Shown: in pieces, positions 9,575 through 64,000 of the stretch
How the letters are laid out: each line of letters begins with the position of its first letter
How positions within the stretch are numbered: position 1 is the first letter of the stretch
Notes under the pieces: model-generated
What the model was told of the DNA's origin: nothing
Seen by the model: only the letters and a program-made list of their open reading frames with translations
Database searches by the model: none
DNA from: an uncultured bacterium
Lineage (GTDB): Bacteria; Patescibacteriota; Minisyncoccia; Phycocordibacterales; Phycocordibacteraceae
Assembly: GCA_963759775.1 (NCBI GenBank)
Contig: CAVXAH010000001.1
Coordinates: 400,682 to 464,681 of the forward strand
DNA: 64,000 bases
Reading direction: 5' to 3'
Position numbers and translations under genes: made by a program

Positions 9575-9925
9575 TTACCGGCAGATGAGCTCGTTCTTCA
9601 ATCCTCCGAATGCTTGAAGAGTAATCCGGAGTGGTTCCCGTGTCATGCCCAGCATCGATTTCCGCTTGAGCCTGCTGCTTGGCGACTTCAAGCGACGGCA
9701 AAGCCTTGCTCGAAGATCGACGTCGTTCCAGTACGAAAGCGAGGTCTGTTGAACGCGATTTTCACCGCCAGGTCCGCTTTGTTGTAAATCCTGAAAGGTG
9801 CTGCGCTCAACTAAAACCGTCTTGGGCGCAGCCACTTCTGCAGTCTGCCCATGGTTTGTCTCCAGTTGTGTGGATACCACCAAACTTCCAGAGAAGAAGT
9901 TACCACACCGTGCCATTCTTTGCAT
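9575..9925 (-). CDS. possible small antisense-oriented gene in the rpsG-fusA spacer, probably frameshift-damaged
   Basis: 116-aa ORF with TAGAAT upstream on the minus strand, ending at the 9535-9568 hairpin. More natural-looking peptide segments ([21 protein letters not shown]..., [24 protein letters not shown]...) lie in the other two minus frames. Confidence 0.3.
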
Positions 9926-9976
9926 TTTTCCGATTCTTCGCTATTCTACGGACAACGCTTCGGCGCTTTTTATTTT

Positions 9977-9988
9977 TATAACACTATC

Positions 9989-9991
<3 letters not shown>
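9977..9991 (+). promoter_or_regulatory. -10-like box + 6 nt + ATG (leaderless layout) at fusA
   Basis: TATAAC 9977-9982, ACTATC, ATG 9989. An additional TTGCAT-16-TATTCT lies at 9920-9947. Confidence 0.45.
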
Positions 9992-12141
<2,150 letters not shown>

Positions 12142-12170
12142 ATCCGGCGGACGAAACCTGCCCCGTAGCC

Positions 12171-12196
12171 AAACGCCGCCTTCCGAGGCGGCGTTT
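12171..12196 (+). terminator. hairpin after fusA
   Basis: AAACGCCGCC-TTCCGA-GGCGGCGTTT. Confidence 0.55.
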
Positions 12197-12254
12197 GTGG
12201 TACTGAGGTCATCGCAAAACGTAAATAAAAGTACACAAAACGCTTGTGCACAGC

Positions 12255-12284
12255 GGCCGCCCGAAAGGGCGGCCTGTGTTTTTA
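12255..12284 (+). terminator. rho-independent terminator (second, tandem) after fusA
   Basis: GGCCGCCC-GAAA-GGGCGGCC followed by TGTGTTTTTA. Confidence 0.7.
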
Positions 12285-12295
12285 TATGCCTCTTG

Positions 12296-12310
12296 TATAC
12301 TGTCCTCATG
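12296..12310 (+). promoter_or_regulatory. -10 box + 6 nt + ATG (leaderless layout)
   Basis: TATACT 12296-12301, GTCCTC, ATG 12308. Confidence 0.55.
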
Positions 12311-12697
12311 AAACATTACTTTGAAGGCAGAATAGCTCGTTTGAATTATTTTGTTGCAGGTATCGCGCTCTCAATTTCCTTGTCCATCGTCTCAAGCATA
12401 CTTAACAAAGTAGTTGGTGGGGTGGGAGCCAACCTGGTAGTTGGTCTCATCACGCTCGCCGCATTTATGCTAAGTCTTTCGCTTATGTTACGTCGCTTCC
12501 ATGACATGGGATGGAGCGGTTGGCATTCACTCTGGATGATTGTTCCGCTCGTGAACATCGTATTTTGTCTTATGCTCCTCTTCAAGCGCGGAACAGCGGG
12601 CGACAATCAGTACGGCAAAGATCCGGAGAAAGAAGTTCGTCTTTGGGAAAGCCTTTTCCCGAAAGCCCCGAGAATTTCTTCTCCACAACCCCTCTAG
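12308..12697 (+). CDS. DUF805-family inner membrane protein
   Basis: Start taken at the internal ATG. RLNYF...TM helices...LRRFHDMGWSGWHSLWMIVPLVNIVFCLMLLFKRGTAGDNQYGKDP matches the DUF805 signature (RRxHDxGxSGWW...G..G.N.YG). Confidence 0.8.
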   Translation: MKHYFEGRIARLNYFVAGIALSISLSIVSSILNKVVGGVGANLVVGLITLAAFMLSLSLMLRRFHDMGWSGWHSLWMIVPLVNIVFCLMLLFKRGTAGDNQYGKDPEKEVRLWESLFPKAPRISSPQPL

Positions 12698-12846
12698 CAC
12701 TTGCGCTTTCCGTAGGGCTCCGGTACATTTTCCCTAACGCATCTTGGCGTCGCTCTTTGGCTGTCTGCTTGGTTTAGTAGCGGGCCTGGAGTTTTTCCGA
12801 CTCGCGTCGGATTTATTTAACCGTTACCGATAATTACTAAATCGTA

Positions 12847-14051
12847 TGGCAGAATTCGATCGTTCAAAGCCGCACATGAACGTAGGTACCATCGGTCACG
12901 TTGACCACGGTAAGACCACGCTCACCGCCGGCATCCTCAACGTCCTTGACATGAACAAGGCAGCAGGCTACAGCGCCCGCGTTGAGGCATGTCGACAACA
13001 TCGACAACGCTCCTGAAGAAAAGGCTCGTGGTATTACGATCGCCCTCCACCACTCGAGTACGAGACACCGAACCGTCACTACGCGCACATCGACGCGCCA
13101 GGTCACGCTGACTACATCAAGAACATGATCACCGGTGCCGCCCAGATGGACGGCGCAATCCTCGTGGTTGCCGCAACTGACGGCGCTGATGCCTCAGACT
13201 CGCGAGCACATCCTCCTTGCAAAGCAGGTTGGTGTGCCTAAGAATCATCGTCTTCCTCAACAAGGTAGACATGGTTGATGACAAGGACATGATTGACCTC
13301 GTTGAAGAGGAAATCCGCGAACTTCTCACAAAGCAGGGCTTTGACGGCAGCAACACTCCAGTTATCCGTGGTTCAGGCCTCAAGGCTCTTGAAGCTAAGA
13401 CGCACAGATGACGAATGGGCACAGAAGGTTATGGAGCTCGTCGACACGCTGGACACGTACTTCCCAGATTCCAGAGCGCGAGACTCGACAAGCCATTCCT
13501 CATGCCAATCGAAGACATCTTCTCAATTGAAGGTCGCGGAACCGTGGTTACCGGTCGTATCGAACGCGGTATCGTCAAGGTTGGTGAGGAAGTCGAAATC
13601 GTTGGTATCAAGCCAACCGCAAAGACGACCGTTACTGGTATCGAAATGTTCAACAAGCAGCTTCAGCGAGGGTCAGGCTGGCGACAACGCAGGTATTCTT
13701 CTTCGCGGTACGAAGAAGGAAGACGTGCACCGCGGTCAGGTTCTCGCAAAGACTGGTTCTGTAACTCCGCACACTGACTTCGAGGCAGAGGTGTACATCC
13801 TCACGAAGGACGAAGGCGGTCGTCACACTCCATTCTTCACTGGCTACAAGCCACAGTTCTACGTCCGCACAACGGACGTGACTGGCGAAGTAACTCTTCC
13901 AGAAGGAAAGGAAATGGTTATGCCAGGCGACACCGTTACCTTCAAGGTGAAGCTCGTTGCGCCAGTTGCTCTTGAGGACAAGACTCGCTTCGCTATTCGC
14001 GAAGGAGGCAAGACGGTAGGTGCAGGCGTTGTGACGAAGATCGTCGCCTAA
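12847..14051 (+). pseudogene. tuf: elongation factor Tu, disrupted as assembled by about 8 single-base indels between ~12985 and ~13670
   Basis: [28 protein letters not shown] at the start. Frame hopping yields [85 protein letters not shown]..., [28 protein letters not shown]. The last ~125 aa are intact to 14051. Confidence 0.9.
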
Positions 14052-18299: not shown

Positions 18300-18332
18300 T
18301 TTTTATATGACCCGACACACTACAAAGGCGTT

Positions 18333-18361
18333 GACTAACACACTGCTGCAGTGTGTTAGTC
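18333..18361 (+). other. 13-bp perfect hairpin between rplV and rpsC (processing site or terminator without T-run)
   Basis: GACTAACACACTG-CTG-CAGTGTGTTAGTC inside a ~155-nt gap unusual for this gene junction. Confidence 0.5.
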
Positions 18362-18454
18362 GTTGTGCAGAAAATCACGATGGGGTACTGTCGGTCGACA
18401 TGACTGCGCACTTTACTAGCTCAAAGGCAAACTACGCCTTTTAGTGTGACGGGT

Positions 18455-19180
18455 ATGACACATACCGTACATCCATACGCGCACCGCCTCGGCATCATCC
18501 GTGACTGGAAGAGTCGTTGGTTTGCAGGCGACAAGAAAAGCTACCGCGAAAACGTCAAAGTAGACGAGACTATTCGTAGATTCCTTACCAAGAAGCTTCG
18601 AGGCACCTACACCTCCGGCATTGAGATTGAGCGCTCGGCAAATGAGCTCAAGGTTATTCTTGCAACCGCACGTCCGGGTCTCGTGATTGGTCGCTCGGGA
18701 GAGAATGCAACGAAGATTCGAAAAGAAATCGCCGACCAGGTGAGAAAAATCGCTCCCAAGCACGGCCGTGTCGTTAAGTTTGACATCGTAGAGGTGCGTC
18801 AGCCGGAGCTTGATGCGGCAGTCGTTGCCTACATGGTTGCCGAAGGTCTTGAGAAGCGCCTACCATTTCGCCGCGTGCTCAAAAGCACGCTTGAGAAGGT
18901 GGATGCAATTAAAGAGGTGGAAGGTGTGCGCATCGTTATCTCTGGACGCCTCGGAGGCGCTGAGATGAGCCGCAAAGAGCAGGTTAAGAAAGGGCGCATC
19001 CCGCTCCAGACGTTCCGTGCAGACATCGACTTCGCGCACGAGAGAGCGTACCTTCCGTACGGCGTTATTGGCGTTAAGGTATGGATCTATCGCGGCAATA
19101 TCTATAACGACAAGAAAGCGGCCGCACGCCAGCAAGAAACGATGAATCCTTCGCGTCTCCCTGCGCAGGCAAACGCATAA
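18455..19180 (+). CDS. rpsC: 30S ribosomal protein S3
   Basis: MTHTVHPYAHRLGIIRDWKSRWFA..., KH-domain region, ...RIPLQTFRADIDFA. An alternative GTG start lies at 18446. Confidence 0.95.
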   Translation: MTHTVHPYAHRLGIIRDWKSRWFAGDKKSYRENVKVDETIRRFLTKKLRGTYTSGIEIERSANELKVILATARPGLVIGRSGENATKIRKEIADQVRKIAPKHGRVVKFDIVEVRQPELDAAVVAYMVAEGLEKRLPFRRVLKSTLEKVDAIKEVEGVRIVISGRLGGAEMSRKEQVKKGRIPLQTFRADIDFAHERAYLPYGVIGVKVWIYRGNIYNDKKAAARQQETMNPSRLPAQANA

Positions 19181-27206: not shown

Positions 27207-27278
27207 TATACCCAGCACTAAAGTTGCGAGTCTCATCACGCCGCACTGTCATTGCGGGATTGTTTAGTGCTGGGTATA
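27207..27278 (+). repeat. 16-bp perfect inverted repeat enclosing 40 nt
   Basis: TATACCCAGCACTAAA (27207-27222) and TTTAGTGCTGGGTATA (27263-27278). Inner hairpin CCGCA-N7-TGCGG. Confidence 0.6.
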
Positions 27279-27902: not shown

Positions 27903-27915
27903 GTCGAACACGTTC

Positions 27916-28019
27916 AAAAACCTCATCTGCTTCGTTATGAGGCCCAGAGATTTCTTTCGTCGTACCACAACGTACGCCTCCAGAAATCTCTCTCCCATGC
28001 CTCGCATCTGAAGGTTTTT
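27916..28019 (+). repeat. REP-like structured element, copy A (conserved ends, variable core)
   Basis: Left end AAAAACCTCATCTGCTTCGTT, right end GCCTCGCATCTGAAGGTTTTT. Same ends occur at 56375-56473. Core has the 10-bp hairpin AGAGATTTCT/AGAAATCTCT. Confidence 0.65.
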
Positions 28020-56363: not shown

Positions 56364-56374
56364 AGGCGTCTCCC

Positions 56375-56473
56375 AAAACCCTCATCTGCTTCGTTGCTCG
56401 TTCCGGTGCTCATTCACCGTATGTTGAATACGGCTCACTTCGCTCCTCACTCACGCCTCGCATCTGAAGGGTT
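56375..56473 (+). repeat. REP-like structured element, copy B
   Basis: AAAACCCTCATCTGCTTCGTT ... GCCTCGCATCTGAAGGGTTT. Same ends as 27916-28019 with an unrelated core (hairpin CCGTAT-GTTGA-ATACGG). Confidence 0.65.
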
Positions 56474-56561
56474 TATGGGACACGCCTGGAGCTATCCACA
56501 GTACCCTCTACAGGGAGGGTGAAATGGCTTACAATAGACCCATTAACTTTTAAAACAGCAT

Positions 56562-60128: not shown

Positions 60129-60236
60129 CCCCTTACCACTTTTGGGGGTGTAGGGATACAAATCCGTTATTAATCGCGAGGTAACCTCGTTATTTTCCTG
60201 CAAAAAAATCGCTTACCCCCCAAAAGTGGTAAGGGG
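60129..60236. repeat. 108-bp unit bounded by a 20-bp perfect inverted repeat, directly after the pilus operon
   Basis: CCCCTTACCACTTTTGGGGG (60129-48) and CCCCCAAAAGTGGTAAGGGG (60217-36). Inner terminator-like hairpin CGAGG-TAA-CCTCG + TTATTTT. TAT on both flanks. Confidence 0.6.
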
Positions 60237-60246
60237 TATACTGTGC

Positions 60247-60384
60247 GGTATGCCACGTGGGACAACATGGCATCATGTCCCTGCTCCCAGCGCGACTAAA
60301 AAATAATCGTTATACAATCATTTACATGTGGGAAACGATTGAAACGTGTGACATGAGGAGCAATGCCATGTTGTACCCCAGGGT

Positions 60385-60387
<3 letters not shown>
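60247..60387 (+). mobile_element. 129-bp imperfect-TIR element (family 2) flanked by GGTATG direct repeats, sitting on the ligA start codon
   Basis: TATACT (60237-42)-7 nt-ATG(60250) | CCACGTGGGACAACATGGCAT ... ATGCCATGTTGTACCCCAG | GGTATG (ligA ATG 60385). Internal TACAAT at 60313-60318. Confidence 0.5.
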
Positions 60388-62407
<2,020 letters not shown>

Positions 62408-62526: not shown

Positions 62527-62818
62527 ATGACAACGCCTGAAGAGGTACAGAAGCTGCGGCGCTCGCGCGCGTCAGCGTCGGAAAGGAGGAATTGCCGAAA
62601 TTTACGAAGGAATTTGACGCTATTTTGGCATATGTCGGACAGCTTGAGTCACTCACCCTCCCGAAGATCTAAAGGATGAAAAGCCGCCGTTTGAGGAATG
62701 TGTTTCGACCTGATGAAAAGCCGACTCCGGCGGGCACATGGACAAAGAAGATACGCGAGGCGTTTCGGATCGCGAAGGGGATTCTTTGGTCGTGAAGCAA
62801 ATCATTACGCATGAGTAA
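62527..62818 (+). pseudogene. gatC: Asp/Glu-tRNA amidotransferase subunit C, about 4 indels
   Basis: Frame hopping gives MTTPEEVQKL / AALARVSVGKEELPKFTKEFDAILAYVGQLESLTLP / DLKDEKPPF / NVFRPDEKPTPAG... / [17 protein letters not shown]. Overlaps the gatA start (ATGAGTAA). Confidence 0.8.
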
Positions 62819-64000
62819 GAAATTAAACGAGCTCTCAATTACCGATGCCGCTCGCGCGCTTCGCGCGCGGGAAATTTCCGTTCGAGAGCTATTTGACGCG
62901 TGTCGCAAGGAAGCAGAGGCACAAAATAAGGAATTAAACGCGTATCTTGAAATCTTTCCGCCGGATGACGCGGCGATCGAGGCGGCACAAAAACGCATAG
63001 ACACTGAAGGCGATACCGCTCCACCTTTGTGCGGCATCCCGCTTGCTATGAAAGACAACATTTTGATTGAGGGAAAAATCGCAAGCGCGGCATCAAAAAT
63101 GCTTGGAAACTACCGTGCACCCTACGATGCAACCGTTACTAAAAAACTGAAAGACGCAGGCGCGCTGTTTCTTGGGCGTACCAACATGGACGAGTTTGCG
63201 ATGGGGAGCTCAACTGAGCATTCGGCCTTTGGTGCGACAAAAAATCCTCATGACCTTACGCGCGTCCCAGGCGGCTCGTCTGGCGGCTCTGCGGCGGCTG
63301 TTGCTTCAGGGAGCGCTATTGCGGCGCTTGGCTCGGACACAGGTGGGTCCATTCGTCAGCCAGCCGCCCACACGGGACTCGTAGGCCTCAAGCCCACCTA
63401 CGGTGCGGTTTCGCGCTACGGACTTATTGCCATGGGTTCATCGCTTGACCAAATTGGTCCTCTCACACAAAACAGTGGAGGACGCTCGAAATTGTTTTCG
63501 AGCGATTCGCGGAAGAGATGCGCATGGATTCAACGACGCATTCCCGAAGATCTGTATGATGCCGCGAAGACTCGCAAATACACTCCGCATCGGGGTACCA
63601 CGCCACCTTCTTGAGAAGGGAATTGATGCCGACGTCTCAGCTGCGTTTGAAGAAGTGCTGAGGGAACTTGAATGCGGCCGGGGTCACGACGATCGTTGAT
63701 ATTGCACTTCCCGCAAGCGAGTACGCGCTTGCCGCGTACTACGTCGTGATGCCTGCGGAAGTTTCGACAAACCTCGCGCGTCTTGATGGCATACGCTACG
63801 GCCACGCCGCGCGCGGAAAAACACTTCCTTGATGACTATGTTCTGTCGCGCACCGAAGGTTTTGGCGAAGAAACACGTCGCCGCATCCTGCTCGGCACAT
63901 TTGTTCTTTCGGCGGGCTATATTGATGCGTATTACCGCAAAGCAGACGCCACACGCACACTTCTTCGCGGAGAATATACCGCCGCATTTACACAAGCAGA
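62811..64000 (+). pseudogene. gatA: Asp/Glu-tRNA amidotransferase subunit A (amidase family), 3' end beyond the window; several indels after ~63470
   Basis: ...[11 protein letters not shown]...[20 protein letters not shown]...[14 protein letters not shown]...[13 protein letters not shown], amidase signature. Later segments TVEDAR..., [18 protein letters not shown]..., [28 protein letters not shown]... lie in other frames. Confidence 0.9.

Follow-up and report, generated by a model that had tools for sequence, protein, structure and literature searches.

What is the short inverted repeat that lies directly on the start codon of ligA, the gene for NAD-dependent DNA ligase, near the end of a 64-kb stretch of patescibacterial DNA (the window, here meaning all 64,000 nucleotides analysed), and how might translation still reach the gene behind it? 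We consider 60253-60383 to be, very probably, a non-autonomous, hairpin-forming element of the MITE type (miniature transposable elements with inverted repeats), inserted in the T-ATG of a leaderless ligA start with duplication of TATG. The features of such elements are present: a small size (135-143 bp from ATG to ATG across the family, 148 in a copy at rpsC), no coding content beyond open reading frames (ORFs) of at most 48 codons or in-frame extensions of the downstream gene, terminal inverted repeats, a short direct duplication, dispersed copies, and empty sites at rsmH and rpsC. Coordinates are collected in Table 1.

A preliminary description of the locus had proposed that a leaderless ligA start was split by a small inverted-repeat element within a repeat bearing the ATG, and at ligA this proposal is supported. 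The positions it gave for the upstream TATACT, the ATG at 60250, the internal TACAAT and an 18-codon ORF all agree with the sequence, with a seven-nucleotide spacer (gtgcggt) between TATACT and that ATG. So does its imperfect inverted repeat with a perfect 12-bp core: the arms (60250-60273 and 60363-60386) are 24 nt long and 79% complementary around the core pair ACAACATGGCAT/ATGCCATGTTGT. This pair finds no further match within the window when one mismatch is permitted; 0.14 matches are expected by chance, and one of 100 shuffles got to two. The ORF opened by ATG 60385 matches the adenylation domain of NAD-dependent ligases over its first 170 residues, and ATG 60250-60252 is the orphaned original start, now at the predicted 5' end of the transcript. 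One detail needs amendment. GGTATG does occur twice, at 60247-60252 and 60382-60387, but the true duplication comprises only TATG, the two bases 5' of the left TATG differing in other family copies (GA, CG, AC, TC and others). The right-hand GG belongs to the element's own terminal GGG, and the left-flank GG at ligA is coincidental. Since the target duplication is only TATG, the insertion amounts to a 131-bp element plus a 4-bp duplication, or 135 bp.

The ancestral state of the locus can be read from relatives. The closest LigA proteins (62-78% identity) belong to Paceibacteria, Kaiserbacteria and related Patescibacteria genomes, and in almost all of 20 relatives inspected ligA lies downstream of the same pilin-like gene. 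Ahead of the ligA ATG these relatives have only a -10 hexamer (TATACT, TATAGT or TACACT) and 6-7 nt, as in L005 (tatactgtgcgcATGAAAGCT), L012 (tatactaggggtATGAAAGCC) and L013 (TAGgtatactgggcgaATG). The window's counterpart of the L005 sequence is tatactgtgcggtATG[135 bp]AAAGTG, and the window sequence minus the 135 bp reads tatactgtgcggtATGAAAGTG. From the relatives' layout and this restored sequence it follows that the leaderless ligA is ancestral and the 135 bp lineage-specific. The empty site anticipated in the preliminary description is thus found at the distance available (LigA 62-78% identical), with ligA leaderless there. If the stretch were instead a conserved ligA leader, relatives should carry it as well; a covariance-model search of about 3 kb around ligA detected no element copy in any of 80 relatives.

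Such a structure might instead be put down to a palindrome arisen by chance, to duplication on the spot or to an artefact of the assembly, and the indel errors of this assembly, together with the single exact core pair in the window, could be taken to favour this. Copies elsewhere decide the matter. Metagenome contigs scanned with the two 12-nt cores only, at a gap of 70-100 nt, yielded 33 stretches, of which 32 are genuine family copies in Patescibacteria contigs, in keeping with the expectation that further pairs of these ends would turn up. The other, L101, was dropped as a chance match in AT-rich DNA, and two more diverged copies were recovered with a covariance model. Common to all copies beyond the searched cores are an ATGCC start and a GGGTATG end, and 32 independent copies sharing boxes outside the search pattern effectively refute chance or artefact, which we regard as vanishingly improbable. 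The copies occupy some 26 distinct sites. Four exact-core copies and a degenerate fifth lie on one 129.7-kb contig, and L107 holds two, 96% identical, before two adjacent genes; this sharing of contigs, with the similarity of the L107 pair, is sequence-level evidence of recent mobility. The same core pattern had no matches in a viral contig collection.

Two subfamilies can be told apart by outer arms that differ compensatorily: subfamily 1 has CCCGGTAGG / CCT(A/C)ACCGGG, subfamily 2 CCCCGACAC / GTGTAGGGG. Inside the cores, subfamily 1 is marked by CGTGTC..TTGCTCC (left boxes, here called B and C) and GACACG.GGAGCA (right boxes, B' and C'); the family interior, about 60 nt, is unconserved. The ligA copy has every subfamily-1 box, its B/B' pair CATGTC/GACATG being a compensatory variant of CGTGTC/GACACG, and its right arm falls 1 nt short of that in the subfamily-1 consensus. 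From a covariance model that did not include the window sequence it receives 82.2 bits (E = 7e-21) on the plus strand and 43 bits on the minus strand. No member is more diverged: its identity to other copies does not exceed 61%. Where copy-bearing contigs encode RsmH homologues, the source labels given to these are Paceibacterota, Minisyncoccia or Patescibacteria. As judged by these comparisons, the ligA element is shown to belong to a multi-copy family of Paceibacteria-type Patescibacteria.

That the same phenomenon affects another gene of the window, as previously suggested, holds for rpsC, whose start codon bears a distant second member and for which L120 preserves the exact empty site. The rpsC element is a 144-bp hairpin inside a ribosomal-protein operon, with TATG duplicated; its left-ATG frame has 45 codons and closes on a TAG that stands 10 nt upstream of the rpsC start. 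With the family model the element reaches 17.2 bits (E = 0.006), and it has the subfamily-2 outer arm in common. A separate Logan run assembly encoding an identical S3 protein has the same 155-nt rplV-rpsC gap in its gene table, which likewise speaks against an artefact of assembly.

Long ORFs start from the right-hand ATG at 24 distinct sites, and two sites are intergenic; the start-codon insertions (24 of 26 sites) concern unrelated housekeeping genes, among them dnaB, pyrG, rsmH and clpB, and the downstream genes have no common function. Because Pfam domains begin within residues 2-40 of the products (Fmt, RsmH, PyrG, RecG, DnaB, a class II aminoacyl-tRNA synthetase, CysS, an exonuclease and ClpB), the right ATG is a genuine start codon. 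Every copy has the orientation of its downstream gene. The intergenic copies are one in L112, on the -35 box of infA and flanked by TTGA/TTGA, and a degenerate one in L099. Two kinds of upstream context recur: a TAnnnT hexamer stands 5-9 nt before the left ATG in 10 of 28 distinct copies (5.5% of control ATGs), and in about half of the copies a long upstream ORF ends 1-6 nt before it. From these two contexts we conclude that start codons are targeted both at leaderless promoters and at tight operon junctions. The earlier notion of a leaderless-start target therefore stands for roughly a third of the sites but is too narrow, the family targeting start codons generally and about half of its sites being operon junctions. 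pyrG was struck independently by both subfamilies, in two lineages with differing upstream contexts.

Of 28 distinct copies, 24 carry the same 4-mer on both flanks (TATG in 23 of them, CATG in one), while in three a left CATG is matched with a right TATG. These flanks bear on a different kind of mobility, in which the element would be a palindrome-associated relative of IS200/IS605, moved by a single-strand HUH transposase and inserted 3' of TATG, so that the right TATG would be a cleavage site and no part of a duplication. IS200/IS605 elements such as IS608 and ISDra2 have no terminal inverted repeats, produce no duplication, and insert 3' of a fixed tetra- or pentanucleotide target. A target resembling a short specific tetranucleotide, the fixed orientation relative to the ATG-bearing strand, and local hairpins near both ends, with complementary boxes that could act in single-stranded DNA, would suit this account. 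It is nevertheless highly improbable: the present copies have terminal inverted repeats of 21-25 bp, which that family lacks; the right tetramer changes together with the left flank (CATG/CATG in L081, TTGA/TTGA in L112), as it should in a true duplication; and no tnpA or tnpB was seen beside any copy, although no systematic search for them was made.

Occupied and empty versions of one site are seen at the mraZ-rsmH junction as well as at rplV-rpsC, and orthologous copies have been kept across species-level divergence (L082 versus L102, L105 versus L108). By these sequence comparisons the family is shown to sit almost exclusively on start codons, co-oriented with the genes and present or absent at orthologous sites. 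A practical consequence is that gene callers misplace starts and emit spurious N-terminal extensions from the element, as in a 341-residue RsmH; RsmH proteins have already been called with a 25-residue extension derived from it.

Translation initiation in this lineage offers a clue to how such insertions could be borne. Shine-Dalgarno-like 4-mers are found at four of 41 gene starts in the window, against 12.7% of random positions. The 20 nt preceding these starts are G-poor, and many hold a TAnnnT hexamer 6-8 nt before the ATG, a spacing from which many genes of the window are taken to be leaderless. Because there is no Shine-Dalgarno use, translation is held to start at the 5' end of the transcript or by coupling to an upstream ORF. 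Either way it matters where the ATG stands, and the left copy of the duplication keeps that place. A 43-codon frame starts at the left ATG in 17 of the 28 distinct copies, crosses the element and closes, 4-6 nt short of the gene's start, on a TAA or TAG in the right arm. In most interrupted copies the early stop overlaps or abuts another ATG (as ATGA in L082/L102, L095, L097 and L109), whose frame continues as far as the right-arm stop or is joined in frame to the gene; the frame of L099 and L110 closes as ATGA on the gene's own start. Scored as a chain of frames to the gene ATG, with restarts allowed from -7 to +12 nt around each stop or through in-frame fusion, a relay is complete in 27 of 29 copies. 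Turning the element round lowers the figure to nine of 29; shuffling gives 37% if applied to the interior and 16% if applied to the whole body.

The arms are built in a way that fits such a relay. The right arm of subfamily 1 has an extra A or C that yields TAA and is absent from the left arm, so that ATG CCC GGT TAG is avoided there, and in subfamily 2 a conserved G/A mismatch keeps TAG in the right arm. These asymmetries coincide exactly with what is needed for an open left arm and a TAA or TAG in the right. Subfamily 2 measures 136 nt from ATG to ATG in eight of nine copies despite unalignable interiors.

On the model that we propose, the orphaned left ATG would keep the position of initiation, at the transcript 5' end or just after the stop of the upstream gene. 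A frame of about 43 codons would then cross the element, its stop, placed in the right arm, would precede the gene's start by 4-10 nt or overlap it, and ribosomes would be handed on by termination-reinitiation in a lineage without a Shine-Dalgarno signal; alternatively, the left-ATG frame would fuse in frame with the gene. In reverse orientation the element would bring an early stop, and reversed copies are not seen. Selection would in this way explain the fixed orientation. On balance, the persistence of copies before essential genes is probably due to their letting translation pass through.

Three other readings of the element were rejected. A conserved small protein encoded by the 43-codon frame was discarded in view of similarity confined to the conserved arms, the interior not being conserved. 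A leaderless promoter made by the right arm was set aside, as neither subfamily has a TAnnnT at 5-9 nt from its right ATG. Nor does that arm offer a ribosome-binding site: its sole GGAG lies about 27 nt upstream, and the lineage has no Shine-Dalgarno enrichment.

Transcripts of the element are predicted to be highly structured. The ligA stretch folds to -48.1 kcal/mol (z = -3.1 over 151 nt, or -4.3 when just the 138 nt of the element are taken), and a long closing stem forms in all members tested, with energies between -48 and -67 kcal/mol and z between -4 and -8.5. Across the subfamily-1 alignment the 24-bp closing stem is 98.7% paired with six covarying pairs, while B/B' and C/C' are 88% and 91% paired with three covarying pairs each; none of 500 shuffles matched the observed values for any of the three helices. 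Over the family, 19-24 bp of the terminal stem pair at the same 98.7%. The B and C helices cross, that is, they are non-nested, which hints at alternative helices or a pseudoknot in RNA, or at a role in single-stranded DNA. With connecting loops of 1-4 nt and 1-2 nt, which look too short for a classical compact pseudoknot, alternative, mutually exclusive helices seem the more likely form. In untranslated RNA the surroundings of both AUGs would be paired within the 21-25-bp terminal stem, which might, speculatively, offer a target for RNase III or occlude initiation.

These structures raise the question of whether the element is chiefly a mobile 5' leader acting as cis-regulatory RNA, in which the stem and crossing helices, acting as a switch or as a site for RNase III, would govern the downstream gene's translation or stability and mobility would be merely the means of spread, a reading that overlaps in part with a MITE-type element. 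Strong folding, strict orientation across the copies and the persistence of orthologous copies (the two pairs named above) agree with it, as does covariation in all three helices, the non-nested boxes included. Yet the ends of an inverted repeat also covary for reasons at the DNA level, the downstream genes share no function, some 60 nt of interior are unconserved, and presence or absence at orthologous sites with target duplication marks an insertion. Rfam contributed nothing over 60250-60387 at E values up to 10, and only a tRNA in the window at gathering thresholds; its sole bearing on the region was in weak hairpin-type matches to the neighbouring element. We therefore judge a mainly regulatory RNA to be unlikely.

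Several points weigh against a MITE-type element made tolerable by a translation relay. The crossing covariation of B/B' and C/C' is unexplained by plain terminal repeats plus relay. The restart window of the relay test (-7 to +12 nt) was picked after the data were seen, and the copies scored are partly non-independent, including orthologues and a shared master copy. Interior stops number 8, 19 and 19 by frame relative to the gene frame, a weak skew, and the ligA copy is itself one of the two exceptions to the relay. The empty ligA site is known from relatives whose nearest LigA is 74-78% identical, none of them of the same species, and the window holds only two copies, one close (ligA) and one distant (rpsC). 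No autonomous partner or transposase with these ends was met in 0.7 Mb of collected sequence, in which ends 1-2 kb apart were not scanned.

The condition of the ligA copy merits separate attention. Its left-ATG frame halts at 60304-60306, and the next ATG is that at 60326. The preliminary description had dismissed this 18-codon frame as junk; the frame is there, but it is probably a decayed or mis-assembled version of the family's run-through frame. The copy may be a diverged member whose relay is broken as assembled, or the break may be an indel of the assembly: one extra A in the run at 60298-60303 would, as a speculation, restore the relay through two ATGA overlaps. It is also plausible, from the hexamer and frame layout, that ligA is translated from an internal leaderless start, TACAAT-N7-ATG, whose frame ends on a TGA overlapping the ligA ATG; similar internal hexamer-N7-ATG layouts are found in L107, L081 and L084.

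A bleaker possibility is that the insertion silenced ligA and the element lies dead in a decaying pseudogene. The gene's frameshifts (at least seven), the most diverged arms of the family and the broken relay would all agree with decay. Against this, other genes of the window are damaged in the same way: fusA, for EF-G, is spread over at least three ORFs and tuf, for EF-Tu, is fragmentary (9851-14051), and an amidase-domain gene (gatA-like, 62811-63614) downstream of ligA looks truncated. Because these too are broken, the frameshifts are most likely assembly indel errors, and because frameshifts in essential genes point to such errors, single-base details of this locus need caution. Between its frameshifts ligA is 52-93% identical to an intact relative, and other copies precede intact essential genes such as dnaB, pyrG and, in the same window, rpsC. 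A silenced ligA is accordingly quite improbable.

A wider proposal, which we advance tentatively as nearly as likely to hold as not, is that there exists a superfamily of short, start-codon-specialised hairpin transposons in Patescibacteria without Shine-Dalgarno initiation, made translationally transparent by the duplicated ATG and a run-through frame whose stop is set in the right arm beside the gene's ATG. Such elements would be tolerated before dnaB, pyrG, rpsC and ligA, since leaderless or coupled translation would not be abolished. Insertions in tiny, gene-dense genomes are usually lethal, and landing on a start codon, duplicating it and relaying ribosomes would, if this is right, be a new route to tolerance, one that differs from those of self-splicing introns, inteins, in-frame palindromic elements and intergenic MITEs. 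Start-codon targeting would itself be new, involving for instance recognition of a melted promoter or initiation region, and the RNA hairpin with its crossing B and C helices might make expression depend on ongoing translation. The family would also be a natural probe of translation initiation, leaderless or by termination-reinitiation, in uncultivated Patescibacteria lacking a Shine-Dalgarno signal. The literature that we searched held no account of start-codon-duplicating, orientation-locked elements, nor of any Patescibacteria repeat family.

Table 1. Features of the ligA locus, the second family member in the window, and empty and filled insertion sites.
Feature	Location	Strand	Sequence or remark
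Separate hairpin element, 108 bp	60129-60236		29-nt arms (86% complementary), TAT/TAT flanks; between pilin-like gene stop and ligA -10 box
TATACT, -10 box of ancestral leaderless ligA promoter	60237-60242	+	Matching hexamers in relatives
Left TATG, first copy of target duplication	60249-60252	+	Flanking 4-mers compared across family
Frame of orphaned ATG, 18 codons	60250-60306	+	MPRGTTWHHVPAPSATKK, then stop TAA at 60304-60306
Left terminal inverted repeat	60253-60273	+	Diverged outer arm CCACGTGGG, 12-nt core ACAACATGGCAT
Boxes B and C	60274-60287	+	CATGTC (60274-60279) and CTGCTCC (60281-60287); complementary to B'/C' in crossed order
TACAAT, candidate internal -10-like hexamer	60313-60318	+	7 nt before ATG 60326
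Second small frame	60326-60388	+	MWETIETCDMRSNAMLYPRV, then stop TGA, overlapping ligA ATG as ATGA
Boxes B' and C'	60350-60362	+	GACATG (60350-60355) and GGAGCA (60357-60362)
Right terminal inverted repeat	60363-60383	+	Core ATGCCATGTTGT, outer arm ACCCCAGGG
Right TATG, second copy of target duplication	60384-60387	+	ATG 60385-60387 is the ligA start
ligA, NAD-dependent DNA ligase	60385-62404	+	At least 7 frameshifts in assembly
Distant second member on rpsC start codon	18306-18457	+	TATG-ACCCGACACAC...GTGTGACGGG-TATG
rplV-rpsC, empty site	L120		taatttttTATGACACACACCG
rplV-rpsC, filled site	Window 18306-18457		taatttttaTATG[ACCCGACAC...GACGGGTATG]ACACATACCG
mraZ-rsmH, empty site	L114-L119		gccaactgatATGGAAGCTCGTCAC; RsmH ~82% identical; layout mraZ-TGA-t-ATG-rsmH
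mraZ-rsmH, filled site	L082, L086, L093, L104; same layout L102		gccaactgatATG[CCCGG...CCGGGTATG]GAAGCTCGTCAC

Other repeats were noted around these sites. The unrelated 108-bp hairpin element upstream of ligA appears, from its flanks, to have been inserted into TATACT, regenerating it; with both insertions removed the locus reads TAG-c-TATACT-gtgcggt-ATG, the layout of L013. No second copy of this element was found in the 0.7 Mb of collected sequence. A third inverted-repeat family, TATACCCAGCAC...GTGCTGGGTATA, has one copy in the window (27207-27278) and one in the Kaiserbacteria chromosome L010 (2890-2992), where it lies right on the ligA -10 box (ggTATACCCAGCACC...GGTGCTGGGTATACtgtgaagATG); it seems to target or duplicate the TATAC of -10 boxes. 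Just upstream of the ligA -10 box, the motif CCAGTAGG(T/C)GATTCT(G/T)CTGAA is found three times in tandem in L003 (~2860-2990) and once in L006 (~2960-2990), and may be a regulator binding site or another repeat. Elsewhere in the window, a repeat of about 100 bp has two copies (27915-28018 and 56374-56474) with conserved ends of 22 nt (95%) and 29 nt (86%) and unrelated interiors, each starting 10-12 nt past the stop of the upstream gene; it is probably the first repeat family of the preliminary description. The RsmH homologues P0138, P0143, P0153 and P0211 carry unrelated extensions of about 12-30 residues ending in ...(I/V)SNG(V) before EARHDS/ARHDS, V replacing the initiator M in three of the four. 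A GTG start may account for these, or else insertion of another family of elements at that same start codon.

Comparison with described repeats places the family near several of them but inside none: for Correia, Rickettsia palindromic, REP2 and IS200/IS605-derived elements alike, a defining feature was looked for and is missing here. Correia elements of Neisseria duplicate TA, lie at varied intergenic positions in both orientations, and give hairpins that are cleaved by RNase III. Bacterial MITEs such as these are ~100-160 bp long and non-coding, with terminal repeats of ~20-26 bp and a short duplication, and are multi-copy, transcribed into hairpin RNAs and able to bear promoter elements (PMC3184786). 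The present family resembles them in its small size, terminal repeats, short duplication, many copies and hairpin. It differs in duplicating (T)ATG, in lying on start codons at 24 of 26 sites, in its co-orientation and in its run-through frame; its ends, CCCGGTAGGACAACATGGCAT, have no sequence similarity to Correia ends, and neither the TA duplication nor the 26-bp Correia repeat is found. With IS200/IS605 elements it shares short target specificity and strand- or orientation-specific insertion, with which the fixed orientation is compatible, and it departs from them in having both terminal inverted repeats and a target duplication.

Two further groups approach it in function or in logic. REP2 of Neisseria and IR-A/IR-B of Borrelia are repeats of 120-150 bp directly upstream of genes, with predicted stem-loops, which supply expression signals including an ATG fused to the ORF (PMC3184786). 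By analogy REP2, a repeat supplying the ATG of a downstream ORF, is the nearest functional counterpart. It nevertheless has no terminal inverted repeats, no described duplication, and its own promoter and ribosome-binding site, whereas the present family has long inverted-repeat ends and a 4-bp duplication, carries no Shine-Dalgarno-like motif at a usable distance in the right arm and no ribosome-binding site, and keeps the initiation site of its host gene. The Rickettsia palindromic elements (RPE), ~105-146 bp long, are tolerated at or in essential genes by respecting the reading frame (PMC3184786), and by the same kind of analogy are nearest in the logic of frame respect. RPE lie in frame within coding sequence and are translated into protein; the copies described here lie upstream of the ORF, mostly with in-frame stops, have no fixed multiple of three as their length (135-143 nt, 148 at rpsC), and add an N-terminal extension only in those variants that lack the right-arm stop.

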